A stretch of 64,000 bases of DNA from an uncultured Patescibacteria group bacterium. GTDB taxonomy: Bacteria; Patescibacteriota; Minisyncoccia; Phycocordibacterales; UBA918. Numbering within the stretch: position 1 is the stretch's first letter; every line of letters begins with the position of its first letter. Location of the stretch: NCBI GenBank assembly GCA_934699595.1, contig CAKUWT010000001.1, positions 289,033-353,032 on the forward strand. The letters run 5' to 3'. The notes beneath the pieces are model-generated. The model saw only the letters and a list, made by a program, of their open reading frames with translations. It had not been told where the DNA came from and did no database searches. Position numbers and translations under genes: made by a program. Shown piece by piece: positions 10,726 to 63,785 of this stretch.

Positions 10726-12210
10726 CTAATCAGCAAAAAAGCTCTTGGTGTCATCCTTGTAGACATCTGATTCTAATACTTCTCTATCGTCATTCTCTTT
10801 TCGAGACACCACAAAGATTCCTCCAATAACCAGTACCAGCAAGCCGCCAAGAGCCCAGTAACTCCAAGCAGTATCTCGCCTAGCAATCTCTTCTTCATCT
10901 CTCTCCAGGTCCTCTGCTTGCAGCCAAATCTCTTCTTGGCCAACTGTCTCTAATTTGACTGGTACCACCTCCTCATCACCGGCAAATGAGAATCTTTTGC
11001 CGTCTGCCATTGGTGACGCTGCCTGATTGCTAACACTGCCCACCGGCGCCTTGGCGACGCTCGCCACTAGTGCCGCTGGGTTGGTCTCTTTAGCGGTAGC
11101 AGTAATCTGCTTGCCAGTATTATCCCGCAACCAAATAGCATCGCGATTACTCAATCCCAAAATCACCGCCGGTAAAGTAATGGAACCATGCGCGGTCATG
11201 ATGGTGTCACGCGGAAAAGTAAAAACTTTCCGCGGGGTGACAATTTGGTAGTTACTAATATCGACCTCGTAGGCAGTATCATTAAAAATGGTCAGCCGAC
11301 CGTCGACCTGCAGTTGCCAAGAAAGTTTAACTGGCAATACTAGGATTTCATGACGCGCGGCCGCTTCGTAATCAGCATATTTAGCTCGCAGGGTAACAAT
11401 GTATTTACCGGGTTCGGTGAAAGTGTGAGTAACTTTTTCCAATCCGTCAAGAACAGCGAAGCCATCCCCAAAATTCCAGGTATAGCGCATCGATTGTAGG
11501 ATGGTATTTGGCATGCCGCCGATCTCTCGCCGCAGTGTAATCGTCTGTCCCACGTACGCCGCCTCACTGACAACAATTTCTAGACTAAGCTCGTTGGCGG
11601 GTAAGGTCACATTTGGGATAATCTTTTTTACCAGCTCAGCTGGCTTGATAGTCGTTGTTGTCTTAGAGCCAGAGTTGCCGCCAGCACCACTTTCTTTTGG
11701 CACACACTGCGACGGTGGTCCTAAGTCTGGATTAATATTGGCTTGTCCCGGAGTGGCGACCGCAGTCATCCAGCTGGTACTGGTACGCTGAGCGGTAGTT
11801 TTAGCCTTGTTGTCGCCACCAATCAAACACCAATCTTTACCGCCCACCACCCTATCCACCTCATTATCTTCCGCATCAAACATGACAACGGTGGCACCAG
11901 TATCCACCATAGCACCGGTGTAATCATCAGTCCTTTTTAAGACCAAATATTGACCACCTGAGATCTCTCCCTTCAAGGACTTAGCGCCAACTGAAATAGT
12001 TTCGTCATCCTGCCCTGTTTTTATAAAGCCAATTTTCCAACCTTCCAGACTAACAGTTTGATCCCCGTCATTATAAAGCTCCAACCACTCCTTAGTGCTA
12101 GCACCCTCCTCACCCATCCATGCTACTTCAGTAATAGTCACCGCCGCCTGGCCAAACTGAGGACAGAGAAAACTAAATAAAATCACGTTTCCTACTACCC
12201 ACCGTTGCAT
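10726..12210 (-). CDS. lamin-tail-domain (LTD) surface protein with a signal peptide, a beta-rich middle region and a C-terminal TM anchor
   Basis: The motif ITEVAWMG...KEWLELYN is the LTD signature. An N-terminal signal peptide and a C-terminal TM segment (WALGGLLVLVIGGIFVV) are present. The gap from the upstream ATPase gene is 6 bp. Confidence 0.55.
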   Translation of the reverse strand: MQRWVVGNVILFSFLCPQFGQAAVTITEVAWMGEEGASTKEWLELYNDGDQTVSLEGWKIGFIKTGQDDETISVGAKSLKGEISGGQYLVLKRTDDYTGAMVDTGATVVMFDAEDNEVDRVVGGKDWCLIGGDNKAKTTAQRTSTSWMTAVATPGQANINPDLGPPSQCVPKESGAGGNSGSKTTTTIKPAELVKKIIPNVTLPANELSLEIVVSEAAYVGQTITLRREIGGMPNTILQSMRYTWNFGDGFAVLDGLEKVTHTFTEPGKYIVTLRAKYADYEAAARHEILVLPVKLSWQLQVDGRLTIFNDTAYEVDISNYQIVTPRKVFTFPRDTIMTAHGSITLPAVILGLSNRDAIWLRDNTGKQITATAKETNPAALVASVAKAPVGSVSNQAASPMADGKRFSFAGDEEVVPVKLETVGQEEIWLQAEDLERDEEEIARRDTAWSYWALGGLLVLVIGGIFVVSRKENDDREVLESDVYKDDTKSFFAD

Positions 12211-12216
12211 AGTACT

Positions 12217-14283
12217 TTAGATAGTCTCAGGATTTTGTCCACTAAGGATTTTCCGTACTGCCTGTTGAGACGGTGCCTTCGACTGTCTGGCTTCGCTATT
12301 ACGCTTCGCTACTTCGAGAGCCTCGAGAGCCTTTTCTGCTTCCTCCAGTAAAACCTCTAGCTTGGCCATACTGGCATGGTCAGTCATGGCTAAGTTGGTT
12401 GCTAAGCTAGCACCAGCGTCACGAGAGCCAGTTTTAGATCTGTTCTTTTCAACTTTCGTAACTCTCTCTGATTGTTTAGAGTTCTGAGCCTCACTATCAT
12501 CCCCAACCTCATTCTTGGTCTCATTACTTTTTTCGGTGGCCTGAAGCACAGCCAGCGCAGCCTGTAATGATTTGCTCTCAGCCGCTTTTTTAGTAGGTGC
12601 ACCAGGATTGCTTTTGCGCTGCTCGTCGGCAGTGAGCTGTCGCAAGATATTTTTTAAATCATCCGATTCGCGAGGCGACTCTGGTCGCTTTGTCTCCGAA
12701 CGAGAATTGTCTCGCTTAGCAGAATTACGCCACTCCGCTGATGGTTTTTTTGAATCCATGCCACTATCTTCACGAGCGGTGCGATTATTTTGCGGAGTCG
12801 TCGCTCTCTCATCACGAGCCGCACTACTTCGCTCATTTTTTTGTGGCCGCTCATTTCGTTGACTTAAACGTGTGTCTTTGTCTTGCGAATTCCCTGCTCG
12901 TGACGACTCCTCACGAGCTCCACTTTCTCGTGGACGATTATCCGGACGTCTCTTCTCGTCTGGTCGTTTATTATTACTCTTCTCTGGACGTTCTGGATTA
13001 TGCAGCAAATTTACCAATTCTTCCACGTACGCTCGTGGTCGGGTGTAATTTTTCCGACTTGCCAAAATCGCCATCTGCTTATAAGAAATGCTCGGTGGCG
13101 ACAGTGGCGGCAAAGTAGTGGCAGAAAATGGCGCTGAACCAATCCCGTCAATCATTAACGACAAATAAATCTGCGCAAAGCCGAGGTTGATTAAATCGGC
13201 CGCCAGGAAAGTGGGAGTAAAAACTGTCTCCAGCACTTCCGCATCAAAAGGACCAACCCTAAAAGCAATGGTGGTACCAACGTTACCAAACACCGCATCC
13301 CGTACCTCCTCTTCCATCTGCTCAATGTACTGGTGAGCGATGATGAGATTCAGGTGATACTTCCGTGCCTCAGACAAAATGTCGGCAAAAGTAGCGTTAG
13401 CAAACGACTGAAACTCATCCACGTAAAAATAGAAGTTGGGCATCTTCCGCATCTGTTCGACAGACAAATCAGCCCGACTCATAGCGGCTAGATAAATACG
13501 AGTGGTGAGCATCGAGCCCAGTAAGTTAGCGTTAGTTTCCCCGATCAAACCTTTGGACAGATTCATAATGAGAATCTTTTTATTATCCATGATGTCACGA
13601 ATATCGAAGCTTGATTTCGGCTGTCCGATAATGTTGCGGATCAAGGGGTTGCCAGTAAACTGACCAATCTTGTTTTGGATAGCAGGCAGCGCTTCAGCAG
13701 CAAAGCGATCAGTGTAGTTAGCAAACTCATCCACCCAAAAAGATTTTACTGCGGGATCGGTAATGTAATCCACTACTTCCTGTCGATATTTTTTATCAGT
13801 AAAGAGTCGATTGACAGAAAGCAGAGTAGTATCGGGATACTCAATCAATGCCAACAGCGCATTGGTAAGAATGTACTCCATTCGCGCACTCCAAGCATCG
13901 ACCCAAATCTTTTTGAAGGTAGACATAAGTCCTGAGACCACCAGATGGCGCTTGTCTGGACCAACGTCTTCCATAACGTTAAAAGAAATCGGATTGTTTA
14001 AATCAAAAGGCGCAAAGTAAATCACATCATTCACTCGCTCTTCCGGAATATACTCCAGCAAAGTCTCAGCGGCACTACCGTGCGGATCAATAAAAGCCAT
14101 CCCTTCGCCATTTTGAATATCCTGTGCCGCCATGTTTTCTAACAAGGTCGACTTACCCATACCCGTCTTGCCGATGACATACATGTGTCGCTGACGATCC
14201 TTAGCCTTAATTCCAAATGAGACGGGTTGTCCGCGGGCGTCGGTCTTCGCAAAATAAGTGATTTTTTCTGGATCAAAGGCCAT
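12217..14283 (-). CDS. TraD/TraG/VirD4-like (AAA_10 / TraG-D_C type) P-loop ATPase with a roughly 260-aa low-complexity, highly charged C-terminal tail
   Basis: A Walker A motif (YVIGKTGMGKST) is present. The motif FYVDEFQSFANATFADILSEARKYHLNLIIAHQ resembles the TraD/TraG C-terminal region. There are no N-terminal TM helices. The last roughly 260 residues are R/E/K/S/N/D-rich. Confidence 0.5.
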   Translation of the reverse strand: MAFDPEKITYFAKTDARGQPVSFGIKAKDRQRHMYVIGKTGMGKSTLLENMAAQDIQNGEGMAFIDPHGSAAETLLEYIPEERVNDVIYFAPFDLNNPISFNVMEDVGPDKRHLVVSGLMSTFKKIWVDAWSARMEYILTNALLALIEYPDTTLLSVNRLFTDKKYRQEVVDYITDPAVKSFWVDEFANYTDRFAAEALPAIQNKIGQFTGNPLIRNIIGQPKSSFDIRDIMDNKKILIMNLSKGLIGETNANLLGSMLTTRIYLAAMSRADLSVEQMRKMPNFYFYVDEFQSFANATFADILSEARKYHLNLIIAHQYIEQMEEEVRDAVFGNVGTTIAFRVGPFDAEVLETVFTPTFLAADLINLGFAQIYLSLMIDGIGSAPFSATTLPPLSPPSISYKQMAILASRKNYTRPRAYVEELVNLLHNPERPEKSNNKRPDEKRRPDNRPRESGAREESSRAGNSQDKDTRLSQRNERPQKNERSSAARDERATTPQNNRTAREDSGMDSKKPSAEWRNSAKRDNSRSETKRPESPRESDDLKNILRQLTADEQRKSNPGAPTKKAAESKSLQAALAVLQATEKSNETKNEVGDDSEAQNSKQSERVTKVEKNRSKTGSRDAGASLATNLAMTDHASMAKLEVLLEEAEKALEALEVAKRNSEARQSKAPSQQAVRKILSGQNPETI

Positions 14284-14353: not shown

Positions 14354-15244
14354 TTACTGATTTAGGATATCCTGTTCAGACTTCTTTTTAGAAAAATAAA
14401 TCAGAAGAAAAGCAAAATAATAAATTAACACTACCGCCATTAGATACCAGTACTGATAATCAGAATCATAGTAATTACGATCACTCCTACTGAAAACCTT
14501 AAACACAAAGCTGCCATAAAGCATTATCAGCGGTGAAGAATAGACGGTAAATTTATAAAGATACAAATAAATTACGTCTCCTAAGCGAAAAGACAATAGG
14601 AGCGGGATTAGCAAAATCAGTAATAGTAAAGCTACCTCTGACAGCCCTATAATAAAATAGTCACAATTATAGCCCGACGGGTCAATTATTGGACATAAAC
14701 CTGTCACAGATATCACCACACTGGGCACCTGCAGAAATATAGCAACTAAAAACCAAATAAATGCCTTTCTCTTTAACCTTTTAACTAACAGAGGTTTCTC
14801 AATAGGCCCGTCTTCTACTTTTATTTTACCGCGCTTAATCCCGTAAGCAGTATAAATGATAACTCCTAATGAAATAAGTATATATGCCAAGCAAGCAAAC
14901 AGGGCAAAAATCATTTTGTAATTTATTCCCAACCAATCAGTCTCCACTACCGTAATTGCATAATAGATATAAATTAATAGCAGCGGTATAGCCACTGAAG
15001 CAAATTTAAACCATCTGAGAAAAACTAACTTATCAAATGGTAAAGTTAATAAGAGTGGCAGACTTAATAGGGTAAAGCTTAGTATGAGAGTGTAAGCATT
15101 CTCAAATGTTACGTAACACCGAAAACTATAAGTGTTGTTTGTTGAGCACAGATTACCCACTTCATAAAAGTACATAAAAATAACTACGGGCACGCAAGTA
15201 AGAAAAATCATCAAAAATGTCCACTTGCTAAATAACTTACTCAT
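14354..15244 (-). CDS. polytopic membrane protein (about 8 TM), hypothetical
   Basis: The hydropathy pattern is strongly hydrophobic. The gene shares a 5' leader motif with the next gene upstream. Confidence 0.45.
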   Translation of the reverse strand: MSKLFSKWTFLMIFLTCVPVVIFMYFYEVGNLCSTNNTYSFRCYVTFENAYTLILSFTLLSLPLLLTLPFDKLVFLRWFKFASVAIPLLLIYIYYAITVVETDWLGINYKMIFALFACLAYILISLGVIIYTAYGIKRGKIKVEDGPIEKPLLVKRLKRKAFIWFLVAIFLQVPSVVISVTGLCPIIDPSGYNCDYFIIGLSEVALLLLILLIPLLLSFRLGDVIYLYLYKFTVYSSPLIMLYGSFVFKVFSRSDRNYYDSDYQYWYLMAVVLIYYFAFLLIYFSKKKSEQDILNQ

Positions 15245-15325: not shown

Positions 15326-15724
15326 TTATTTAGTCTTATTTTTCCTAGAATTATAAGCTGTGTGCACAGCTACCGCCAAAAAAGCTATAAAGTATGCCAG
15401 ATAAATAAAAGGCAGGAAGGCACTTAAAATATTATATCCTGAAAAATAACCTCCACCAATACTCAAAGCGACGGTTGTATAAGTAAAAATAATGGGAACA
15501 GTCACTAGTGTGAAAAAAGAGCAATTATCAAAAAATTTCCTACTAGAAAAAATAGACATGACACTAAGCGGTAAAACCAAGAAAAAACTCCCCAACAATG
15601 ACCAGGCTATGCTGTTGAGAAATTTATAATTATAGACTTCTCCCAAATAACCAAACCCAATGAAACAGACCAAAAATGTAAAGTTTATTAAAAATACATT
15701 TTTTCTATTTAAAAAATTATTCAT
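15326..15724 (-). CDS. small 4-TM membrane protein immediately downstream of the secreted lipase (candidate immunity/partner protein)
   Basis: Four hydrophobic helices in 132 aa. The gap from the lipase stop codon is 6 bp. Confidence 0.5.
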   Translation of the reverse strand: MNNFLNRKNVFLINFTFLVCFIGFGYLGEVYNYKFLNSIAWSLLGSFFLVLPLSVMSIFSSRKFFDNCSFFTLVTVPIIFTYTTVALSIGGGYFSGYNILSAFLPFIYLAYFIAFLAVAVHTAYNSRKNKTK

Positions 15725-15730
15725 ACCAAA

Positions 15731-18160
15731 TTAATTACCTATTAATAACCTCAATTTCAATTCCAATAGTTGAACAATCAGTTTTAATAGTTCGAGGTAT
15801 TGGGAGTTTGCTTCTATTTCCATTTTACGATCCTCAAAGTGGGTGATATATCCAACAGCTGAGGACCCGGAACTTACTGCCGGCCCCTTACCACCTTCCT
15901 CAAACAACGGTAGAGAAACTGGTCCAAGAAGTGATAGAGCGAGTTCTAGATCAGTAGCACCGTCACCATCATAATCAATAATTAAATCACCAGCTGCGGT
16001 AAGGCTACCATCGGGAAAATCCATACGAGCAAGTGTATCAGGATTGCTAGGAATACCCGAGAAAACACTGTAGTTAATTTGCGTATCCGCTTCGTATTCT
16101 TCTATTTCTAAGGTAAAAGAACCCTCATCGTAACCCGTTAAATAAATTGTGGGATTTGCCTCTTTTGGTAAAGACAGCATCTGCACCTCACCGAAGCGCT
16201 CATACCAGGCTCCAGGAATTTGAGAAACGTTTTGACCTATCTCATTACCACTCTCATCCACAGCTGAGAGATGTAGGGGCGAATGCAATATAAACTGTAG
16301 GCGGTTATCTTTATCGATTACTGGTTGAGCGCCATAGATATACTGAGGTAACGGTGAATTATATTCAAAGATAATATTTTTAAAGATAAAATCATTTAAC
16401 TGTCTTAGGTCAAGAAGATTATGATGACCTTTCCTCAACAAGTCAGGGAGTTCAATTCCAAGAAATCTATTGTAACTATCCAAATCCACCCACCACCTAC
16501 TCACACCTTCACCGTCACCAATAGCCAAAGCGCTCGGCGCCACCACTGTTCCATCACCGTCGTAGACAATTCTTGGTTTGTACGACAGGACTTCTGAGGA
16601 ACAAATTTTAGTAAAGAAATTAACAACTTTTGTAACAAGTTCCCTACAGTCTTCAATGCCCTTATAATCAATACCCGCCAAAGTAGCTTCGCCCACGCCA
16701 GCAATTTGATGTATCTCTATTTCTGGAGGTGGCTCCCAGGCACCTATTTTATTTTGGGCAACTTGAGCGGCCTTAATCAATACTGAATTACCAACTACTG
16801 GTAATTTTAAGTTCGAGCTAGGGGGCTGAGTGCGTCCCTCTGTACCCACCAAAAAATCATGCAGCTCATTAGGAGTAATCGCATAGCCAAATTTATCAAT
16901 AAAAGCTTGAGTAGCGAGACGATCATCAAAAGTTACATAGGGAGTGTAAATACTACTGCCAACACTACCGTAATAATTAGCGAACGGTAATAACTGATAC
17001 ATCCCTGGCATATTGCGAGCAATGTCTCTCGCCCTCTCATCTTTTAATGTGCCTAAAATACCGACCTCATACCCATGCAATAAAGCACCAATAGTTTTAG
17101 GTGTCCCCAGCTGTGGTGTCCCTACCATTACTAATTTATCTACCAAATCTGCCGCCTCACTACCAAGCTCACTCAATAAATACTTGGCTAATAATCCCCC
17201 TTTAGAGTGAGCCACTATTGAAACCTTCCCCGTTGGTGATGAAGCCGCTAAATCACGTAAATTATTTTCAATACTGCCGTCACTTAAAATATCTGAAAAG
17301 GAAAGCCGCCAATCGTAAGGCATCGCCAGATAATCAGTAATCTTACTATTGTTTTTATAATTTTCTAAATCTGCCAAAAAAGATTTGTAAATGTCCACAT
17401 TAAGCAACCCGTGAAAAGTATCAACAACCTCCTTGGCAGTAATACTATTTAGACTTTGTCCTACTTCGTTCAGGTATAGTCTTTGGACATGAGAATCCCC
17501 ACCCTCCCAACGCTGAATTTCTCCTTCAAATAAACGGCTGCCCATAAACCCCGGCAAGAAAAGTACATTTGATACTAAGTCTGAGTTCTCAGTTACAGTA
17601 AATGTAATGGACCGAGTATGAATTGGTTCAGCCTCGTCTGCATAAGCTATAGGGAATAACTGGGTAAAAAGATTAAGGAAACGATTAGATTTATTGAGAG
17701 TTAGGTAACCCTCATAAGAAACTAGAGTATAAGTACCTGTAATAAACTCAGGTAGAGGCTCACCCTCCACTAATACATTTTGGTAGCTACCTCCTTCATG
17801 TCTAAATACCTCTATGTCTAGGTAATTGTAATCAAAATCAGGCGCTATTTTGTAATTGACATACTCACTTAGCCCACCAACAGGAACTTGGATAATAGCC
17901 CCCTGAGTAACTGTTTGTCCATTCAAAGTAATCTGGTGTGGGTAATGTGCATCATTAACTACCTCGACATTAAATGGATTGTTACAATCGAATACCGGAG
18001 TTGTGACTGGCCCCTGCACATAGGAACCGCCATGAACCCAGCTCCAAAAATCTGAACTAATGTTTCCACAGCCGGACTGAGCTCCTGCTAACTGCACCGA
18101 CAGTAGAAGAACTACTAGCAGAGAGCTTGTTAGCTTAATGAGACTTAAAATTCTATTCAT
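15731..18160 (-). CDS. secreted LCAT-like / PGAP1-like alpha/beta-hydrolase (phospholipase/acyltransferase family), about 809 aa
   Basis: A signal peptide (MNRILSLIKLTSSLLVVLLLSVQLAGAQS) is present. The motifs LFLPGFMGSRL and YLAMPYDWRLS (YDWR) and the nucleophile elbow VSIVAHSKGG (GHSxG-type) are present. DGDGTVVAPS is a candidate catalytic Asp. A paralog lies at 61410-63785. Confidence 0.65.
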   Translation of the reverse strand: MNRILSLIKLTSSLLVVLLLSVQLAGAQSGCGNISSDFWSWVHGGSYVQGPVTTPVFDCNNPFNVEVVNDAHYPHQITLNGQTVTQGAIIQVPVGGLSEYVNYKIAPDFDYNYLDIEVFRHEGGSYQNVLVEGEPLPEFITGTYTLVSYEGYLTLNKSNRFLNLFTQLFPIAYADEAEPIHTRSITFTVTENSDLVSNVLFLPGFMGSRLFEGEIQRWEGGDSHVQRLYLNEVGQSLNSITAKEVVDTFHGLLNVDIYKSFLADLENYKNNSKITDYLAMPYDWRLSFSDILSDGSIENNLRDLAASSPTGKVSIVAHSKGGLLAKYLLSELGSEAADLVDKLVMVGTPQLGTPKTIGALLHGYEVGILGTLKDERARDIARNMPGMYQLLPFANYYGSVGSSIYTPYVTFDDRLATQAFIDKFGYAITPNELHDFLVGTEGRTQPPSSNLKLPVVGNSVLIKAAQVAQNKIGAWEPPPEIEIHQIAGVGEATLAGIDYKGIEDCRELVTKVVNFFTKICSSEVLSYKPRIVYDGDGTVVAPSALAIGDGEGVSRWWVDLDSYNRFLGIELPDLLRKGHHNLLDLRQLNDFIFKNIIFEYNSPLPQYIYGAQPVIDKDNRLQFILHSPLHLSAVDESGNEIGQNVSQIPGAWYERFGEVQMLSLPKEANPTIYLTGYDEGSFTLEIEEYEADTQINYSVFSGIPSNPDTLARMDFPDGSLTAAGDLIIDYDGDGATDLELALSLLGPVSLPLFEEGGKGPAVSSGSSAVGYITHFEDRKMEIEANSQYLELLKLIVQLLELKLRLLIGN

Positions 18161-29619: not shown

Positions 29620-31098
<1,479 letters not shown>

Positions 31099-49716: not shown

Positions 49717-49736
49717 GTCTATCTTCAAAACTTTAA

Positions 49737-49845
49737 GTTGGCGCCTACCTACTCTTCCCCAATTAAGGAGTACCATCGGCGATGGAGGGCTTAACTGCCG
49801 TGTTCGGAATGGGAACGGGTGTACCCCCTCCGCTGAAGCACCAAC
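49737..49845 (-). rRNA. 5S rRNA
   Basis: The reverse complement reads GTTGGTGCTTCAGCGGAGGGGGTACACCCGTTCCCATTCCGAACACGGCAGTTAAGCCCTCCATCGCCGATGGTACT...GGCGCCAAC, a conserved 5S core. Confidence 0.8.
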
Positions 49846-50551: not shown

Positions 50552-51296
50552 CATCCCAGGTCCCGTATTACTACGGGGATTGGACTATATGTTCTCCATT
50601 TCAGGAGGTTGACGTTTAGTCTCTACGGGGTCAATATCGTGTTTTTCGTCGTTTAGAGTAATTCAATTCTCTGAAGTAATCAATTTTCTTCAACATTTTA
50701 GTAAAATCCTGCTGAGAACTCAGCTTCTTCTTATCTTCTAAAATCTCAAGCAGTAAATCTGCTTGGAGTCTCTTAAGGAATAAGAAAGGTTTTACTTTGT
50801 CAAGAAAATCAACAAGCTCAGCCTGTTTATTGATTGTAAATTCATACATCTCATCATTTCTTATGCGCAATCTACCGTAACCGATCCTTTCCATCAACTT
50901 TGAAAAGTTGGTATCGGTCGCCTTCTGAAAAAAGGCAACGTAAGGTGCAATTTGGTAACCATATCGATAACTCGAATTTGGTTTTGCGCGCACATAGATA
51001 CTTCCGTCTCCATCTAAGAGACCCGCTAAGTATGCGTAGAAATTTTCTTGATTTGTCGACATAACACTGACTTCCCTCGGTATTATCCTATTTTAACTTA
51101 GGACTCCACCGATATAGTCAACTTCTCTCCACAATATTTCTATTGTGGGCCGCCGTGAATGATGTCTTTTTGAATACTTTTTGGTTAAACCAGTATTCAC
51201 CTCGGGTTTAGATTGGTCGAGCACCTTTTATAACTAAACAGCTACAAAGGTTTCTTTGTCCTTTAAACATTATTAAATAATGGAAAAAGGTGCTCG
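50552..51296 (-). mobile_element. group I intron in the 23S rRNA at the I-CreI-type site (E. coli about 2593, ...TTTAGACCGT^CGTGAGACAG...)
   Basis: The exon junction can be reconstructed from the conserved flanking 23S sequence. The intron ends in G after an exon U. It contains the LAGLIDADG ORF. Confidence 0.6.
50631..51062 (-). CDS. single-motif LAGLIDADG homing endonuclease (143 aa, I-CreI-like)
   Basis: The motif YLAGLLDGDGSI is near the N-terminus. The ORF lies wholly within the 23S intron. Confidence 0.7.
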   Translation of the reverse strand: MSTNQENFYAYLAGLLDGDGSIYVRAKPNSSYRYGYQIAPYVAFFQKATDTNFSKLMERIGYGRLRIRNDEMYEFTINKQAELVDFLDKVKPFLFLKRLQADLLLEILEDKKKLSSQQDFTKMLKKIDYFRELNYSKRRKTRY

Positions 51297-51323
51297 ACGG
51301 TCTAAACCCAGCTCGCGTGACTT

Positions 51324-51356
<33 letters not shown>

Positions 51357-51910
51357 GCTCCAGCCCCAGGATAAGTCGAGCCGACATCGAGGTGCCGAAC
51401 CGTGCCGTCGCTATGGACGCTTAGGCACGACTAGCCTGTTATCCCCAGGGTAACTTTTATCGGGTAATCTCCGGCAGCATCTAAAGCCCACCGTCGGTTC
51501 ACTATGCTCCACTTTCGTGTCTGTTTGACTCCTAAGTCTTACAGTCAAGCTGGTTTATGCCATTACACTATCAGCACGGTTTCCATTCGCGCCTAACCAA
51601 CCTTGAGACCCCTCCGTTACTTTTTAGGAGGGTAGCGCCCCACTAAAACTGCCTGCCACACACTGTCCCTGCCAGGTTTTTCCTAAGCGGGTTAGAGACT
51701 ACCGAATTAAAGAGAGGTATTTCACTGGCGACTCCACGGTACCCGAAAGCCCGCTTCAAAGTCTCCCTCCTATGCTGCGCATTAAGTCAATAGCCCCAAT
51801 ATGAAGCTACAGTAAAGCTCCTGGGGTCTTTCCGTCTAACTGCAGGTAACCGGCATCTTTACCGGTATTGTATTTTCACCGAGCTAGTCCTCGAGACAGT
51901 TTCCCAGTCG

Positions 51911-51950
<40 letters not shown>

Positions 51951-52950
51951 ATACGCTCTATTTTTCCTTCTCCTAAACATCTTGCAAGCAAGATATTTAG
52001 ACATTTCACAATAGGACTCTATCTTAGCCCACGAACCTAAATAAATTTAGTCGTTACGGGCCAGCAACATTTGGTCTCTTGTTGGTTGCTGTTGGACAAA
52101 CTGCACCTTTCAGTACAGTAGGTAACTATGGCTAGGCTATTTAACCTATAATCGTTCCAGTCCTGGAACGTACTTTCAAGAAAAATACGCTCCACCTTAG
52201 AACGATTATAGTTATCGCTGACATTTACCGGGGCTTATACAGCCCAGCAAAGCAATCCGAAGATCACTTCACCATCCGTATTTAACCTTCCGGCATAGGT
52301 CAGGCGTCACCCCCTATACATCCTCTTACGAGTTCGCAGGGAGCTGTGTTTTTGTTAAACAGTCGCCAGGAAATCTTTCGCTGCGGCCTTTCTATCGCTA
52401 GAAAGGCAGGCCTTATCCCTAAGTTACGGCCGCTTTTTTGCCGAGTTCCTTGAGGACCAATCACTCGTTCGCCTTAGTCTTCTCGACCCTACCACCTGTG
52501 TCGGTTTGCGGTACGGAACCATCACGTTTATGCTTAGAAGTTTTTCTTGGAAGCGTGCTCCCTGACATCGGATCGGCCGAAGCCTCACCTTTAGACTGAA
52601 CTCGGAGTATTGCTAGACGGATTTGCCTATCTAGCCTCCTCGAACCTCCAACGGCAATCCAGTAAGCCGCGTCAGGTACAACCCTCCGTCCCTCCATCGC
52701 AACGTAACAGTGTGCAGGAATATTAACCTGCTATCCATCGAGTCCCCCTTTCGGGATTCCCTTAGGACCGACTAACCCTTCGCTGATCAACATAGCGAAG
52801 GAAACCTTGGTATTTCGGCGGGCAGGGGTCTCACCTGCCTTGCGGTTACTTGTGCCGGCATTCTCACTTCTGTACGCTCCAGATGAGGTCTCCCTCACCA
52901 TTCATCGCAGAACAGAACGCTCTCCTACCACTCGTACACTTCATTGAGGA

Positions 52951-53170
52951 TTCAATCATAAACTGATTGAAAAAAGGAAAACTGTTGAGGGAATTCCTTT
53001 AAGGAGCTCCTTAGCACCCCAGTGTAACTGGCCACTCGAGTTTATCTAGAAAACTCTCTTGGATATTATTATATGTGCTTACCTGTGAAGATCAGGAGAG
53101 GTCTCGCGAACCTGGTCCTGCATCAACTGGGTGTTTCCCTCAACAATCTCAGAGACTAGCTCTGAAGTAT
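52951..53170 (-). other. 220-nt insertion (IVS-like) in 23S helix 45, flanked by a perfect 17-bp inverted repeat
   Basis: The arm GTACACTTCATTGAGGA at 52934-52950 is the reverse complement of the arm at 53171-53187. The equivalent E. coli helix is a short hairpin. Confidence 0.5.
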
Positions 53171-53888
53171 TCCTCAATGAAGTGTACGAATTCGCAGTTT
53201 CGGTAATATGCTTGAGCCCCGATCATCTTCGGCGCAAGGACTCTCGATCAGTGAGCTGTTACGCTATCTTTAAAGGATGGCTGCTTCTAAGCCAACCTCC
53301 TGACTGTTTGTGAATCCTCACCTCCTCGTTTGCACTGAGCATATATTTAGGGACCTTAACTGGCGATCTGGGCTGTTTCCCTTTTGACCAATGGAGCTTC
53401 TCCCCCATAGTCTAACTGCCGAGCTATAACCAACTGGTATTCGGAGTTTGATAAGAGTAACGAGATTTCTCCCTGTTTACCCTTTCCAGTGCTCTACCCC
53501 CAGTGGGATCACTCGACGCCAACCCAAAAGCTGTTTCGGAGAGAACCAGCTATTACGGAAATCGATAAGCTTTTCACTCCTTACCACAAGTCATCCCCGC
53601 GTGTTGCACGGCGCGTGGGTTCGGGCCTCCACGACCTTTTACAGTCGCTTCACCCTGCTCATGGCAAGCTCTTTCCGCTTCGGGTCGTACCCCTACCCTC
53701 GAATTGTAAACAATTCATTCGCACTATTCATGCTCGCTTTCACTATGCCTCCGTGGGGTTACCACTTAAACAAAGGATAAAGGTACACTCGCCGGCTCAT
53801 TCTTCAATAGGCACGCCGTCACCCGGATAAATCCAGGCTCCGACTCCTTGTAGGTGTATGGTTTCAGATCTATTTCACTCCCCTCTCC

Positions 53889-53933
<45 letters not shown>

Positions 53934-54909
53934 TTTTAAGGATATTTAGCCTTACCAGTTAGTACTGGTGGATTCATTCAAGCTATTCATGTCTCGAACT
54001 ACTCAGGAGCAAAAACCAAGGAGATGTATAAATTTCAAATACAGGACTATTACCTTCTGTGGTCGAACTTTCCAGATCGTTTTTCTATCTATACATTTTG
54101 TAACTCCTCGCAACTAAATGCTGTCTTTGTCCTACAACCCCATTATTGTAAACAACAATGGTTTGGGCTCTTCCCGTTTCGCTCGCCGCTATTCAGGGAA
54201 TCGCGAGAACCTTCTTCCTGAACATAATGGCGCTCGCGCACCAATGTTCAGAATAAATCCTGAACATGATGCCAAGCATCTGTTCAGAAAGAAAATTCTC
54301 TTTATTGCTTTCTTTTCCTATAGGTACTGAGATGTTTCACTTCCCTACGTTCGCTCTCTCATACAAGAGTACCTGCCGATGGCAGGTGGGTTTCCCCATT
54401 CGGAAATTTCCGGGTCAAAAGTTATTTGGCACCTCGCCGAAACTTATCGCAGCCATATCACGTCCTTCATCGCTCCTTAAAACCTAGGCATCCGCCATAC
54501 ACCCTTACATTCCTGCAAGGAATGCTGTACACCGCTGTACAATTTTATTTGAGTGTTTGTGATCATGAGACCCTACAATAAAATCTCATGACCCTTCTTT
54601 TGTGTGCTGGGGACGAAAAGACCCGTATCGGATAATTGATACTTTATTGGGTCAAACCCAACACACATTTTTACCTGCCACATATTTTAATAAATTAAAA
54701 TATGTGGATGCCAGTGTGCGTCGAACACACTGGACTTGTCGAACCACCCCTTATCAAAGGTGGTTCTGAGAATATGCAGTTTTCAAATAACTGCGTACTA
54801 TTCATTGAAATCTTAGAAAGAAAAATCCGCGTTCTCGCGGCACAAAAAACGAAAGTTATCTGAGCGCGCTGCGTTACTTTTTTCCCAATCCCATAAGTAC
54901 GTGAGTGCT

Positions 54910-59736: not shown

Positions 59737-60060
59737 TCAGACCCGAAAATCTACTCGTGGAGAGACTTCCAAAATCTGTCTTGGCTTCATGGGCAAGTCG
59801 GGGCGGTCATGGTGAGTCACCACTACCGTGATAAGACGGCGACGACGCTCAGTCCCAACTCCTGGAGGATAGGTACTAAAGCGTTCTCGTCCAGAGAGGA
59901 AATCTTTTCCGGCCGCCCGAAGCTTCGCCTGCAAGTCTTCCCCCTCTTGCCAATCGACATACCCGCCACCTAAGCGGTGGTCAAGGTACTCCACCTCCAG
60001 CCCCGCTGAGGTGACCGCCGTGCAGTCACAGATTTTGTCGAAATAAATACGGTACCTCAT
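59737..60060 (-). CDS. hypothetical protein
   Basis: The only evidence is the ORF itself. Confidence 0.2.
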   Translation of the reverse strand: MRYRIYFDKICDCTAVTSAGLEVEYLDHRLGGGYVDWQEGEDLQAKLRAAGKDFLSGRERFSTYPPGVGTERRRRLITVVVTHHDRPDLPMKPRQILEVSPRVDFRV

Positions 60061-60284: not shown

Positions 60285-60355
60285 CGGGGTATAGTATAGT
60301 GGTAGTATCTGCCCATGGGGTGGGTAAGGCATCGGTTCGATTCCGGTTACCCCGA
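60285..60355 (+). tRNA. tRNA-Pro (anticodon GGG)
   Basis: The sequence folds as a cloverleaf. The acceptor stem CGGGGTA/TACCCCG is 7 bp. U8 is present. The D-loop AGTGGTA carries G18G19. The anticodon stem TGCCC/GGGTA has loop A-U33-GGG-G37-T. The T-arm is ATCGG-TTCGATT-CCGGT. The discriminator is A. Confidence 0.7.
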
Positions 60356-60360
60356 CTAGT

Positions 60361-60417
60361 AGAGCTAACCTAAAACACAACCGCCACTTGGCTTCTGCCA
60401 AGTGGCGGTTGTGCTCT
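60361..60417. terminator. bidirectional terminator between tRNA-Pro and the convergent membrane-protein gene
   Basis: The hairpin acaaccgccacttggc-ttct-gccaagtggcggttgt has an outer agagc/gctct extension and a T-run on the minus strand. Confidence 0.5.
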
Positions 60418-60438: not shown

Positions 60439-60888
60439 CTACCTCCCCGCCAGTCTCTTCCACAGATATTTTACTACCAAAATTAGGTACGGGATTAAAA
60501 CAAACAGCACGGTGACCGCAATAAGAATCAGAGCACCGATAGCTAGAGAAAATTGGGAATCAGTAGGAATGGGAGAAAAACCGATCTGCTGCCGATTCGC
60601 CGTAAGAGTCAGAACAATATAAAGTGGTATATACCAAATTCCAAAATATTTCCACCACTGCTTATAGGTTACTGTTCGCACCAGCAGCAAGAGTGCTTGA
60701 GATATTAGTATAGCTACAGACAAGGCGTATACATAACTTAAATTTGAACCGACTCGAAGTGGGTACAAAGAAATATTATTCTTCTCTGGCAAAAGATATC
60801 TTATAAAAAGAAAGAACAAAAGTACGATAATAAAAATTACGTATTTATTAAGAACTGATTGGATAGTATTTTCTAGTAATTTTTTCAT
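60439..60888 (-). CDS. small 4-TM membrane protein, tandem paralog B (candidate immunity/partner of lipase 2)
   Basis: The start is taken at MKKLLENT, matching the paralog. Nucleotide identity to 60943-61389 is about 85-90%. Confidence 0.5.
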   Translation of the reverse strand: MKKLLENTIQSVLNKYVIFIIVLLFFLFIRYLLPEKNNISLYPLRVGSNLSYVYALSVAILISQALLLLVRTVTYKQWWKYFGIWYIPLYIVLTLTANRQQIGFSPIPTDSQFSLAIGALILIAVTVLFVLIPYLILVVKYLWKRLAGR

Positions 60889-60942
60889 AATAAAGTATTT
60901 AGTTTCTAATTGATTCAAATTTTAATATAAATAATCATTAAA

Positions 60943-61389
60943 TCACCCTACTCTCTTCCGCCACAAATACTTTACTACAAAAATTAAGTGTGGGATTAGG
61001 ACAAACATCGATGTGACCGCAATAAGAATCAGAGCACCGATAGCCAGAGAGAATTGGGGATCAGTAGGAATGGGAGAAAAACCAATCTGCTGTCTATTCG
61101 CCGTAAGAGTCAGGAAAATATAAAGTGGTACATACCAGGCTCCAAAATACCTCCACCACTGCTTATAGGTTACTGTTCGCACCAGTAACAAGAGTGCTTG
61201 GGATATTAGTATAGCTACTGATAGAGCGTATACATAATCCAAGGTGGTTCCTACCCGCAGTGGGTAAAGGGAGAGTACGTTTCCTTCCGGAAGTAGCCAT
61301 TTTATCAAAAGGAAGAACAAGAGTGTAATAATAAAGATCATATATTTATTAAGAGCCGATTGGATGGTATGTTCTAGTAATTTTTTCAT
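60943..61389 (-). CDS. small 4-TM membrane protein, tandem paralog A
   Basis: MKKLLEHTIQSALNKYMIFIITLLFFLL... Four hydrophobic helices. The gene lies 20 bp downstream of the lipase 2 stop. Confidence 0.5.
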   Translation of the reverse strand: MKKLLEHTIQSALNKYMIFIITLLFFLLIKWLLPEGNVLSLYPLRVGTTLDYVYALSVAILISQALLLLVRTVTYKQWWRYFGAWYVPLYIFLTLTANRQQIGFSPIPTDPQFSLAIGALILIAVTSMFVLIPHLIFVVKYLWRKRVG

Positions 61390-61409
61390 AAAATTTATTT
61401 ATTGCACGA

Positions 61410-63785
61410 TTAAATAAGCCTAGCTTCCAATAAAAGTTTTAGCTGTAGTAACAACTCAAAAAGCTGTTTATATAACTCTATTAGATTGTCTGATTCCAGA
61501 TCACTTTCAGCTACCAGAGGCAAATACCCTCCTCCTGAATTACGCGAGGTCGGTTCTTCAAGCAGATCACTCATAACAGACAAATCGTTCCAACTGTATA
61601 CCTCGTCAATAATGCTATCTCCATCAAAATCAGTTGCAATATCAGAAAACTGCTCTGTTGAAGAATAAGATAAAAATGCCTGTGTATTACTAGAAACTGG
61701 AGTGTAGCCTAAAATATTAACCAACTCCTGAAATCCGTCGTTAAGTGTATGAGCGGTGAGGGCATAATAACCATCATCGGTACCCTGAAGAGCCACCTCA
61801 TAATTACCATTGTCCGGTATTAGAAGGTACTTACTCTCACCTAATTCTAAATAGCGGGAACCAGGAATATCCTCAAGGATATTCCCCTCACTAATACCAG
61901 CCGTCCTGCCTTCCTCATCAGTAACGATAATCTCTACTGGAGAATGAGCGCCCAGTAGCAGCTGTGGCTGTTTTAAAACTAATGGAACCGTCGGCAATTC
62001 TGAATCACCTTTAAAAAGATGGTCAAGAATTTCTATGACCCCATCACTGGACATCATACTTGAGTGATTAACTTCATCCGGAGCAAGATCAACGGTGAAA
62101 CTATTCTTACTACCTAAATACCCCGTAGCCGACTTAACCGCCACAGTTCCATCTCCCCAAACATCAAAATACGGAATTACTTTGAGAGCGGCTAAATCTC
62201 CATTACTATCTGAACAAATTAATAGAGCTACTAGTGGATTACACGGTAGCCTGGTGTAATAAAGTCCAGACAAGGTCGGTAGGTCTCTACCCGCAATTTC
62301 ATAAACCTCGACCTCATCCGGAAAGATAAAGTCTTCCAGTAAGACCTGATCAGGGCCAGCTTGGTTTAATAATCCAATATTAACGTTAGTTGGTCGATTA
62401 AGGCTGACACTCTCGCTTGGAGATGGGCGAGAAGTGTTATTTAAAAAAGCTTCTAGTATGGTTCGGTTGTCTATAGCCGTATTACCGACATAACTATTAG
62501 TTAGCTCCGATCCGTCGGTCTTGATTAGGGCTGGGAATTGATAAGTAGCAAAATATTTCTGACTTGGTAGTAAACTATACGCTACCGGAAAATTTCTCAC
62601 CGCTTCTCGGTTGACACTTCTGCTAGAAAGCAAGTTCTTTAGCCAGTTACTCTCGTAACCATGTAACAACTTAGCCAAAGTTTCTGAAGCGCCATACTGT
62701 GGCGTACCCACCATAATAAAATTATCAACCTTACTTTTGAGACTCTCACCATATTCAGCAAACAGGGCCTTGCCCAGCAAGCCGCCATTAGAATGACCGA
62801 CGATAGTAACCTTGCCAGTTTTTGAAGAAGCCGCCAGTCTCTCTATTTCATCTACCAAATACTTAGTTTCATTCTGATACTGAGTACCATTTTTCACGAT
62901 GCTCGAGACATCATAACGCCAGTCGTAAGCATAGATACCGAAATCATTAATAAACTTTTCAGTATTTTTATACGTATCCAATTTATTGATAAAGGTGTCG
63001 TAAATATCAACCACGGAGTAGGCTTTACGTAAAACATCATTTGTCTTGGTATAAATATTATTTAAACTCTGACCAGTTTCATCCATCATTAATTGTCTTA
63101 CGTCAGTATTACCAAATGGTAGCCAGCGTTCAAACTCTTTTCCTTGCACGCCTTCATAAAGATAACTCCCTTGTATTCCCGGAATGAATAAAATATTGGA
63201 ACCTCCAACCTCTTTCTCCTCCCTAACTACAAACGTGACTCCGTAAAGCATATTCCCCCAATCAGCGTGTGCGGTCGGGATGATAGCGTTTTTTAACCAA
63301 TTCCAGTAGGGGTGACGGTAATTAACTACCACTCTTTGGTCGATTAAAAGTGTGTAAACTCCGGGAGTAAAAACATAGCGGTCAAGGTCATCAGTGGCTA
63401 CCTCATAAAAATCATCACCTCGGTGATGAAATAACCTAAAGTATCGCCATTGAAAAAAGTCTGGATCGGTAACAAAAAAGTAACTAGTATTAGTGTCTAG
63501 GAAAATCTCTGAATCAGCCTCTAAGATTTGATCGTTTAGGAAAACTGCATGGGGTAGATCCCATCCCTCATTATCGAGAAAAAAAGGATTAGCGCAATCA
63601 CTTTCAAGACCTTGGTATTCATTTTTACTAGAGTTAAATGTATAGACAGTACAAGCTTGAGCGGTTGGAGCAAAAAGAAAGAAGATTAATGAGAGGAGGG
63701 TTAAAATAAGTAATTTAATACCGAAAAATCTAGTCGGCTGAAAAACTCTGTTAACTGTTTTAGGAATACCGCTAGTTATTATCAT
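61410..63785 (-). CDS. secreted LCAT-like / PGAP1-like alpha/beta-hydrolase (phospholipase/acyltransferase family), paralog of 15731-18160, about 791 aa
   Basis: A signal anchor/peptide (...LILTLLSLIFFLFAPTAQA) is present. The motifs ILFIPGIQGSYLYEG, IYAYDWRYDV (YDWR), VTIVGHSNGGLLGKALF (GHSxG), WGDGTVAVKSA (Asp) and EVNHSSMMS (His candidate) are present. The C-terminal Leu-rich tail is shared with the other copy. Confidence 0.65.
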   Translation of the reverse strand: MIITSGIPKTVNRVFQPTRFFGIKLLILTLLSLIFFLFAPTAQACTVYTFNSSKNEYQGLESDCANPFFLDNEGWDLPHAVFLNDQILEADSEIFLDTNTSYFFVTDPDFFQWRYFRLFHHRGDDFYEVATDDLDRYVFTPGVYTLLIDQRVVVNYRHPYWNWLKNAIIPTAHADWGNMLYGVTFVVREEKEVGGSNILFIPGIQGSYLYEGVQGKEFERWLPFGNTDVRQLMMDETGQSLNNIYTKTNDVLRKAYSVVDIYDTFINKLDTYKNTEKFINDFGIYAYDWRYDVSSIVKNGTQYQNETKYLVDEIERLAASSKTGKVTIVGHSNGGLLGKALFAEYGESLKSKVDNFIMVGTPQYGASETLAKLLHGYESNWLKNLLSSRSVNREAVRNFPVAYSLLPSQKYFATYQFPALIKTDGSELTNSYVGNTAIDNRTILEAFLNNTSRPSPSESVSLNRPTNVNIGLLNQAGPDQVLLEDFIFPDEVEVYEIAGRDLPTLSGLYYTRLPCNPLVALLICSDSNGDLAALKVIPYFDVWGDGTVAVKSATGYLGSKNSFTVDLAPDEVNHSSMMSSDGVIEILDHLFKGDSELPTVPLVLKQPQLLLGAHSPVEIIVTDEEGRTAGISEGNILEDIPGSRYLELGESKYLLIPDNGNYEVALQGTDDGYYALTAHTLNDGFQELVNILGYTPVSSNTQAFLSYSSTEQFSDIATDFDGDSIIDEVYSWNDLSVMSDLLEEPTSRNSGGGYLPLVAESDLESDNLIELYKQLFELLLQLKLLLEARLI

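Follow-up and report, generated by a model that had tools for sequence, protein, structure and literature searches.

Several systems are known in which the gene of a lipid-attacking or otherwise secreted protein is accompanied by a small cognate gene. In the lipase-foldase operons of Pseudomonas, Burkholderia and Acinetobacter (LipA-LipB/Lif), the gene of a secreted lipase is followed by that of a membrane protein needed by the enzyme. In the Tle-Tli pairs, for example Tle4-Tli4, and in the systems of pore-forming colicins with immunity proteins of three to four transmembrane (TM) helices, one or more small cognate genes lie right downstream and tandem arrays are common. Lif wraps the lipase with a large helical domain in the periplasm and has a single TM helix, and the Tli proteins are periplasmic and not polytopic. 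An arrangement that resembles these in layout is found in the stretch of DNA considered here and called the window, 64,000 nucleotides of contig CAKUWT010000001.1 from an uncultured Patescibacteria group bacterium. In the window, a gene for an alpha/beta hydrolase resembling LCAT and the lysosomal phospholipase A2 (LPLA2) is followed by two adjacent genes, copy B and copy A, for small membrane proteins with four predicted TM helices. We put the probability at roughly 0.6 that the two copies are a lineage-specific duplicate of the cognate membrane partner of this Sec-secreted LCAT/LPLA2-like enzyme.

The original prediction, which was made from the letters of the window alone, regarded the two genes as a recent tandem duplication typical of immunity or partner genes. 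Its mention of a partner gene is strongly supported by the distribution of the small-protein family, since members lie directly behind an LCAT-like hydrolase in 64 of 75 species-level loci. The relatives were reached only via an alignment of the hydrolase, through which 80 species-representative loci were retrieved. All open reading frames (ORFs) of at least 60 residues were translated in six frames, giving 2,997 ORFs from 89 loci, and a hidden Markov model (HMM) seeded with six small proteins was iterated over them until it converged on 88 hits. Every hit in the species-representative loci (75 of 75) is on the strand of the hydrolase and starts within the 2.3 kb that follow the stop of the hydrolase gene, a zone in which only 370 of the 2,604 ORFs of these loci lie. 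From the end of the hydrolase gene to the start of the first family gene, the median distance is 3 nucleotides (range -61 to +79, n = 67 modules), and the stop and start codons of the two genes often overlap. This synteny validates the family membership derived from the HMM.

Among the 75 usable species loci, that is, those with a complete hydrolase and room downstream of it, the 64 with at least one family copy comprise 56 with one copy, five with two and three with three. In seven of the 11 loci that appear empty, the slot directly after the hydrolase is occupied by a shorter ORF of 92-119 residues with about three TM helices (L054, L057, L058, L063, L068, L073 and L087). This ORF may represent a shortened or strongly diverged form of the partner, or else an unrelated gene in its place. 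The multi-copy sets are of different ages. Some represent ancient paralog classes, others are lineage-specific with identities of 55%, about 43% and 39%, and the window pair, with 82% identity, is the youngest of the sets seen.

The module occurs across Paceibacteria and Kaiser-, Nomura- and Moranbacteria-type genomes of several classes, and the homologs of the hydrolase carry Paceibacteria, Kaiserbacteria and Patescibacteria names. The same hydrolase and four-TM module is also seen in five loci (L077, L048, L053, L050 and L029) labelled by GTDB as Micavibrio, Bdellovibrionales, Campylobacterales or Patiriisocius. Mis-binning of Patescibacteria contigs is the most likely explanation; were the labels correct, the module would occur in predatory bacteria too. 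The ribosomal protein genes rplJ-rplL adjoin the module in the window and in the loci L002, L018, L046, L057, L063 and L068. Judged by this gene order, the module appears to be inherited vertically, in the manner of housekeeping genes.

The tandem pair can be compared with the nearest relative, which has a single copy. On the contig of this relative (cluster P0004) the gene order is Na/Ca exchanger, hydrolase of 793 residues, one small gene of 143 residues, rplJ and rplL, the same as in the window. The hydrolase is 50% identical to the window hydrolase, and the small gene, located 10 nucleotides downstream of the hydrolase gene, encodes a protein 43-44% identical to the window copies. No remnant of a second copy was found in the locus of the relative by tblastn. 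A single copy without a remnant in a syntenic relative suggests that the duplication arose in the window lineage after the split, and the tandem pair thus appears to be a lineage-specific duplication. In the single-copy relative, the region immediately upstream of the Na/Ca exchanger contains a Fic-domain gene and a toxin-antitoxin cluster of the CopG/ParE type (L002 3999-6311, L006 1373-3685); the scaffold of the window organism (L001) differs there.

Searches with the small proteins themselves returned very little. Neither copy matched a Pfam family at E <= 0.1, a sub-threshold similarity to ATP-synthase-A being dismissed as meaningless, and NCBIfam and PADLOC scans of both copies gave no match. 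Among 5.8 billion proteins, a word-indexed search recovered nothing but copies A and B themselves. An exhaustive profile search of 1.84 billion representatives returned one true relative cluster, P0004, with a profile E of 8.7e-29. A further cluster from the same search, P0005, was rejected as spurious, as it consisted of 11 weak stretches in what appears to be a translated tandem DNA repeat. Direct scans of GTDB genomes and JGI metagenomes with the small-protein alignment gave no match, nor did a profile search of the PDB sequences with the family. Operons combining an enzyme with a membrane partner are a known type, and the partner family found here is unclassified in Pfam, NCBIfam and the PDB sequences. 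The other 76 members of the family matched no Pfam family at E <= 0.01, DUF202 aside. Weak hits to DUF202 were obtained for seven of the 78 members (best E 1e-5), not including the window copies. These hits could be noise from hydrophobic composition or could reflect a remote link. No description of the hydrolase/four-TM module was found in the literature on LCAT or PF02450 in Patescibacteria.

The family consists of proteins of about 130-150 residues, and its alignment (78 sequences) has a mean column identity of 18%. Both window copies are among the sequences of the HMM, which makes their HMM scores partly circular; independent support comes from BLASTP, with E-values of 2.7e-41 to the L002 ortholog and 3e-14 to the L004 ortholog. 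The family signature is F75-x2-W78-[LW]-[KR] ... W85-x2-P88 at the cytoplasmic end of TM2/TM3, together with Thr or Ser at position 126 in TM4 and a basic residue before TM4. The elements F75-x2-W78, W85-x2-P88 and T126 are present in the window copies. In outer loop 1, 50 of 73 family members have a Cys at the column of S40. Neither the loop-1 cysteines nor the basic residue before TM4 occur in the window copies or in the L002 ortholog, and these form a divergent subgroup of the family.

The hydrolase can be compared with the structurally characterized enzymes of the LCAT/LPLA2 group (PLA2G15, PF02450). It matches Pfam LCAT PF02450 with 48.9 bits (cut-off 21) and PGAP1 with 39 bits. Its AlphaFold2 (AF2) model, built with 18 homologs in the alignment, has a predicted local distance difference test (pLDDT) score of 77.8 and contains a signal-peptide helix, an N-terminal beta-sandwich, an alpha/beta-hydrolase core, a C-terminal beta-sandwich, a disordered or flexible linker and a terminal amphipathic helix of 28 residues (763-790). 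The best Foldseek matches are LPLA2 (4x92, E 1.8e-14, TM-score 0.69 on the target) and LCAT, with E-values ranging from 1e-14 to 1e-11 and TM-scores of about 0.7 on the target for 4x92, 4x97 and 5bv7. Further matches include Tle4, a type VI secretion system (T6SS) lipase (4r1d, E 7.5e-9), family-I lipases and the LipA:LipB complex 9g8u.

The residues of the putative catalytic site, GHS332NGG, D545 and H574, are invariant in the 18 homologs and follow the Ser, Asp, His order of alpha/beta hydrolases, as in LCAT and LPLA2; the triad was assigned from this residue order and the invariance, not from superposition. A signal peptide ending in AQA followed by C, and conserved cysteines, were read from the sequence. 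Because of the signal peptide, the fold matches and the invariant GHS332NGG/D545/H574, the hydrolase is probably an active extracytoplasmic protein of the phospholipase A/acyltransferase type. After cleavage of the signal peptide it would have, as we infer from the sequence, no membrane anchor of its own. However, the sequence identity to the solved LCAT/LPLA2 structures is only about 16%, and the window hydrolase is twice as long, with the extra N- and C-terminal beta-sandwiches and the terminal amphipathic helix. It is a divergent, domain-extended member of the LCAT/PGAP1-like hydrolases. We know of no eukaryotic LCAT with a dedicated four-TM partner.

The two small genes exist as ORFs at the predicted positions, on the minus strand, although the protein lengths given in the original prediction were swapped between them. 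The start of copy A was taken as the ATG at 60888 by homology with copy B, while the longest ORF reaches a TTG at 60918. The tandem duplication is visible as a direct repeat with a period of 501 bp, in which 60460-60759 corresponds to 60961-61260 (85%) and, in a second in-register block, 60785-60890 corresponds to 61286-61391 (80%). Tandem Repeats Finder did not report the pair, the period being greater than the limit of 500 of the program. The proteins are 82% identical over 148 residues without internal gaps (BLASTP E about 1e-89), and the peptides YVYALSVAILISQALLLLVRTVTYKQWW and ANRQQIGFSPIPTD are the same in both copies, as had been predicted. Hydropathy indicates the four TM helices that were also part of the prediction, in agreement with the helices in an AF2 model of low confidence made from a two-sequence alignment (residues 2-32, 50-69, 75-99 and 111-147; pLDDT 58). 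The Lys and Arg residues are distributed very unevenly between the inside (N-terminus, loop 2 and C-terminus) and the outside (loops 1 and 3), with 10 versus 3 in copy A and 10 versus 2 in copy B. This indicates an N-in/C-in topology and the same orientation for both copies. A dual-topology or antiparallel pair was rejected on account of the same bias in both.

The differences between the copies are not spread evenly along the chain. The predicted nucleotide identity of 85-90% is correct for the 3' two-thirds of the gene (87.9% in codons 53-143, with 90% at the amino acid level), which encode TM2 to TM4, but not for the whole of codons 1-143 (81.8%) nor for codons 1-52 (71.2%, with 75% at the amino acid level), which encode the cytoplasmic N-terminus, TM1 and outer loop 1. 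The same values agree with the expectation that most differences fall within the first 60 codons. Mismatches occur at 78 of 429 coding positions, 44 of them third codon positions. Third-position differences number 27 in the 52 codons of the 5' segment and 17 in the 91 codons of the remainder (Fisher p = 6e-5), and the best breakpoint is near codon 57, with p = 6e-6 as the minimum over all scanned breakpoints, uncorrected for the scan. Four-fold-degenerate sites differ at 10 of 14 positions in codons 1-52, where they are saturated, and at 7 of 42 positions in codons 53-143.

By the Nei-Gojobori method (NG86), the synonymous divergence (dS) between the copies is 0.70 and the non-synonymous divergence (dN) 0.12, giving a dN/dS of 0.17 overall; dS is about 1.9 in codons 1-52 and about 0.41 in codons 53-143, with dN/dS values of 0.10 and 0.14, respectively. 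These values do not agree with a duplication that is recent, nor with selection in the sense of diversification, both of which had been proposed. Both copies are intact full-length ORFs under purifying selection and neither is a pseudogene. Each keeps different ancestral residues relative to the outgroup, and neither is obviously the derived copy.

The saturation of the silent sites in codons 1-52 suggests that the duplication is old and that the 3' two-thirds (codons about 53-143) were later homogenised by gene conversion. The non-synonymous differences show the same clustering as the synonymous ones. The amino acid changes in the N-terminus, TM1 and loop 1 are therefore no evidence of positive selection, which was ruled out for the 5' third, and their clustering is better explained by a mosaic history, for example through gene conversion. 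Gene conversion would be the most economical reading of this mosaic; the alternative is that one 5' third was swapped in by recombination. The length of the tract speaks less clearly for gene conversion, as the longest identical run is 34 nucleotides (permutation P = 0.05).

The hydrolase, copy B and copy A are co-oriented and separated by spacers of 20 and 54 nucleotides, in neither of which a terminator-like site was found by a consensus scan. The spacer between the copies has weak similarity to the 20-nucleotide spacer upstream of copy B. An unusually long hairpin resembling an intrinsic terminator starts 21 nucleotides past the stop of copy A, with an RNA folding energy of -42.9 kcal/mol (z = -7.3). 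The three genes appear to form one operon closed by this strong terminator hairpin. The hairpin also faces a convergent tRNA gene, and it could serve as a bidirectional terminator. An ORF of 107 residues without a Pfam or NCBIfam match lies between the tRNA and rplJ (59737-60060, minus strand). In the syntenic relative L002 neither this ORF nor a tRNA is present at that place, and no tRNA was found across L002. The coordinates of the features are collected in Table 1.

Table 1. Positions in the window of the two hydrolase modules and of the elements next to the tandem pair; the family HMM values of copies A and B are partly circular, both copies being among the sequences of the HMM.
Feature	Position	Strand	Description
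Hydrolase gene, first of operon	61410-63785	minus	791 aa, Sec-secreted LCAT/lysosomal-PLA2-like alpha/beta hydrolase (predicted); copy B starts 20 nt past its stop codon
Copy B, upstream paralog	60943-61389	minus	148 aa, four-TM small membrane protein; family HMM E 1.6e-20
AT-rich spacer between copy B and copy A	60889-60942	minus	54 nt
Copy A, downstream paralog	60439-60888	minus	149 aa, four-TM small membrane protein; family HMM E 2.5e-21
Divergent 5' segment, copy A codons 1-52	60733-60888	minus	counterpart in copy B 61234-61389
Homogeneous 3' segment, copy A codons 53-143	60460-60732	minus	counterpart in copy B 60961-61233; putative gene-conversion tract
Intrinsic-terminator-like hairpin	60372-60417	minus	21-bp stem, 4-nt loop, then GUUUU; 17-nt perfect inverted repeat
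tRNA-Pro(GGG)	60285-60356	plus	convergent, faces the hairpin
Second LCAT-like hydrolase	15731-18160	minus	809 aa, 30% identical full-length to the first; Pfam LCAT 74 bits
Four-TM ORF of second module	15326-15724	minus	132 aa; marginal family match, E 0.015
Long ORF of second module	14354-15244	minus	296 aa; N-terminal half a family member, E 1.8e-8

A second hydrolase gene with small genes behind it is located elsewhere in the window, and the genome thus carries at least two hydrolase/small-partner modules within 64 kb. Here the long ORF, which looks like a head-to-tail fusion, contains, in its C-terminal half, a second collinear four-TM unit that is below significance; a basic linker and no additional TM helix are found between the halves. 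The same orientation of the units in this fused protein suggests that the family works as parallel oligomers, and for parallel oligomers a tandem pair would readily lead to a hetero-oligomer. The second module is followed directly by a gene for a VirD4/TrwB-type coupling-protein homolog with a long, charged low-complexity tail (12217-14283, minus strand), and next to it a gene for a surface protein with Lamin-tail and PKD domains (10726-12210, minus strand).

It is important to compare the small proteins with the known families of membrane partners and small membrane proteins. They differ from Lif in being almost wholly embedded in the membrane, with four helices and loops of about 10-21 residues. 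A Pfam lipase-chaperone match was found neither for the window copies nor for the 76 other members. The four TM helices, the short loops and the lack of this match do not fit Lif. The small transporters and channels of the SMR/EmrE and Fluc/CrcB families are of similar size, have four TM helices and occur in singleton, tandem and fused forms, as the present family does. However, the window copies and the family average are strongly N-in/C-in, the fusion has no linking helix, and there is no sequence match to these families. The same charge bias in both copies and the fusion without an extra helix suggest that the units are parallel, not antiparallel. With regard to the four-TM Lipocone/VanZ superfamily, none of the 78 members gave a Pfam hit to VanZ (E <= 0.01), and His, Asp and Glu are not conserved in the family alignment.

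Three other explanations of the pair can be considered together with the partner role. It may be argued that the four-TM proteins are immunity proteins shielding the membrane of the producer from its own secreted phospholipase/acyltransferase, the tandem copies broadening or strengthening the protection. The gene lies directly downstream of a lipid-attacking enzyme, arrays of two to three divergent copies recur, which is a typical layout, and the enzyme fold resembles that of the effector Tle4. The small proteins also evolve faster than the enzyme, with identities of 43% versus 50% in the closest relative and about 25% versus 42% in the next, and Patescibacteria, as described in PMC11665869, grow on host cells and encode phospholipases proposed to damage host envelopes. 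However, the dN/dS values of 0.10-0.17 give no sign of diversifying selection, and the module keeps its place beside rplJ-rplL and is found at most of the species loci, which belong to several classes; polymorphic toxins are usually patchy. The enzyme has a plain Sec signal and matches only LCAT, PGAP1 and general alpha/beta-hydrolase families, and neither PAAR, Rhs, LXG, VgrG or another delivery domain (Pfam on the named ORFs) nor a PADLOC hit was obtained. Delivery genes of the T6SS, type VII secretion system or CdiA type were not seen in the ORF maps of the window from 55.9 to 64 kb or of locus L001. Unlike the Tle-Tli and colicin systems, the module thus has no T6SS or polymorphic-toxin context, and its synteny, its phylum-wide spread and the lack of a toxin or secretion domain argue against a classical toxin-immunity pair. 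In addition, the very short loops and the cytoplasmic motif leave little surface to block an enzyme of 800 residues. Immunity is therefore considered rather unlikely.

The small protein might also be independent of the enzyme and merely co-transcribed with it, the duplication being neutral drift of copy number. It could then be, for instance, a small transporter, a protein like holin or LrgA, or a Lipocone/VanZ-like four-TM enzyme. The likeness of its singleton, tandem and fused forms to small transporter and channel families, the weak DUF202 matches and the description of Lipocone as a lipid-active four-TM superfamily (bioRxiv 10.1101/2025.01.14.632903) are in its favour. This explanation is improbable, since the linkage to the hydrolase is far tighter than casual co-transcription, with the gap or overlap of a median of 3 nucleotides, and holds for each of the 75 hits in the species-representative loci. 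Neither Pfam nor NCBIfam gave a match of copy A or B to a holin, LrgA, SMR or VanZ model, the family has no conserved His, Asp or Glu for a catalytic role, and the same orientation of the copies excludes a dual-topology pair. An assembly artefact, with one real copy and a strain variant wrongly joined to it as the second, is to be considered because the sequence comes from a metagenome assembly. The available contigs are essentially identical (a scaffold of 399,901 bp from ENA has 1 mismatch in 13,562 bp against the window) and may go back to one set of reads. The hydrolase and the two small proteins each occur on three contigs of up to 454 kb; as these contigs may share reads, the internal divergence is the stronger argument. 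The 78 differing coding sites have a synonymous excess, and the silent sites of the 5' third are saturated, which is far beyond strain-level variation. A collapsed or mis-assembled repeat would not be expected to show a nucleotide divergence of about 18% together with the mark of purifying selection. The flanks differ as well, with upstream spacers of 20 and 54 nucleotides and distinct 3' ends, and arrays of two to three copies occur at eight loci in other genomes. An artefact is accordingly very hard to maintain.

The vertical inheritance beside rplJ-rplL, the presence in most loci, the constraint on the sequence and the lack of a toxin-delivery context lead us to favour, tentatively and with somewhat less than even confidence, a docking or acceptor role for the small proteins. 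They would sit in the membrane of the producer as parallel homo- or hetero-oligomers and would dock or serve the extracytoplasmic hydrolase, holding it at the cell surface or receiving its lipid products. The two isoforms, which differ in TM1 and outer loop 1, could then provide a second version of the interface with the enzyme. Several observations weigh against a membrane partner of this kind. The external loops are short, about 16-21 residues, and the most conserved motif (F75-x2-W78 ... W85-x2-P88) is at the cytoplasmic face, away from the secreted enzyme. For the small protein, AF2 gave a poor model with a pLDDT of 58, for which Foldseek found no meaningful structural neighbour. In addition, the distant members of the family rest on an iterated HMM of hydrophobic proteins with pairwise identities of about 15-25%.

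Some features of the window lie outside both modules. The rRNA genes are unlinked, with the 16S gene about 20 kb from the 23S gene (29638-31097, 49736-49845, 50631-51062 and 51240-54518, all on the minus strand). The 23S match has 3,279 nucleotides compared with 2,925 of the model, about 350 extra, and an ORF for a LAGLIDADG homing endonuclease (143 residues, Pfam E 2.9e-7) is located between the 23S and 5S genes.

The tandem duplication alone is ordinary genome evolution, and its value is as a pointer to the module. The secreted LCAT-like enzyme and its small four-TM partner would represent an undescribed, phylum-wide two-component module. The variable copy number, from one to three with one fused form, and the mosaic pair are natural variants for probing the small protein. 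Patescibacteria cannot make their own lipids, and the means by which they obtain them are explicitly described as unknown (PMC11665869). It is conceivable, though unlikely on the present evidence, that the enzyme and its four-TM partner or partners are the missing lipid-acquisition device. In such a device the enzyme, held at the cell surface, would remove acyl chains or lysolipids from the host membrane, the four-TM oligomer in the membrane of the symbiont would be its docking site and would take up the products or insert them, and extra copies could tune the interface or the specificity. A conserved extracytoplasmic acyl-transferring enzyme with a dedicated membrane partner would be a concrete, testable candidate for lipid acquisition in these organisms or, alternatively, an enzyme that attacks host membranes and has a built-in subunit for self-protection.

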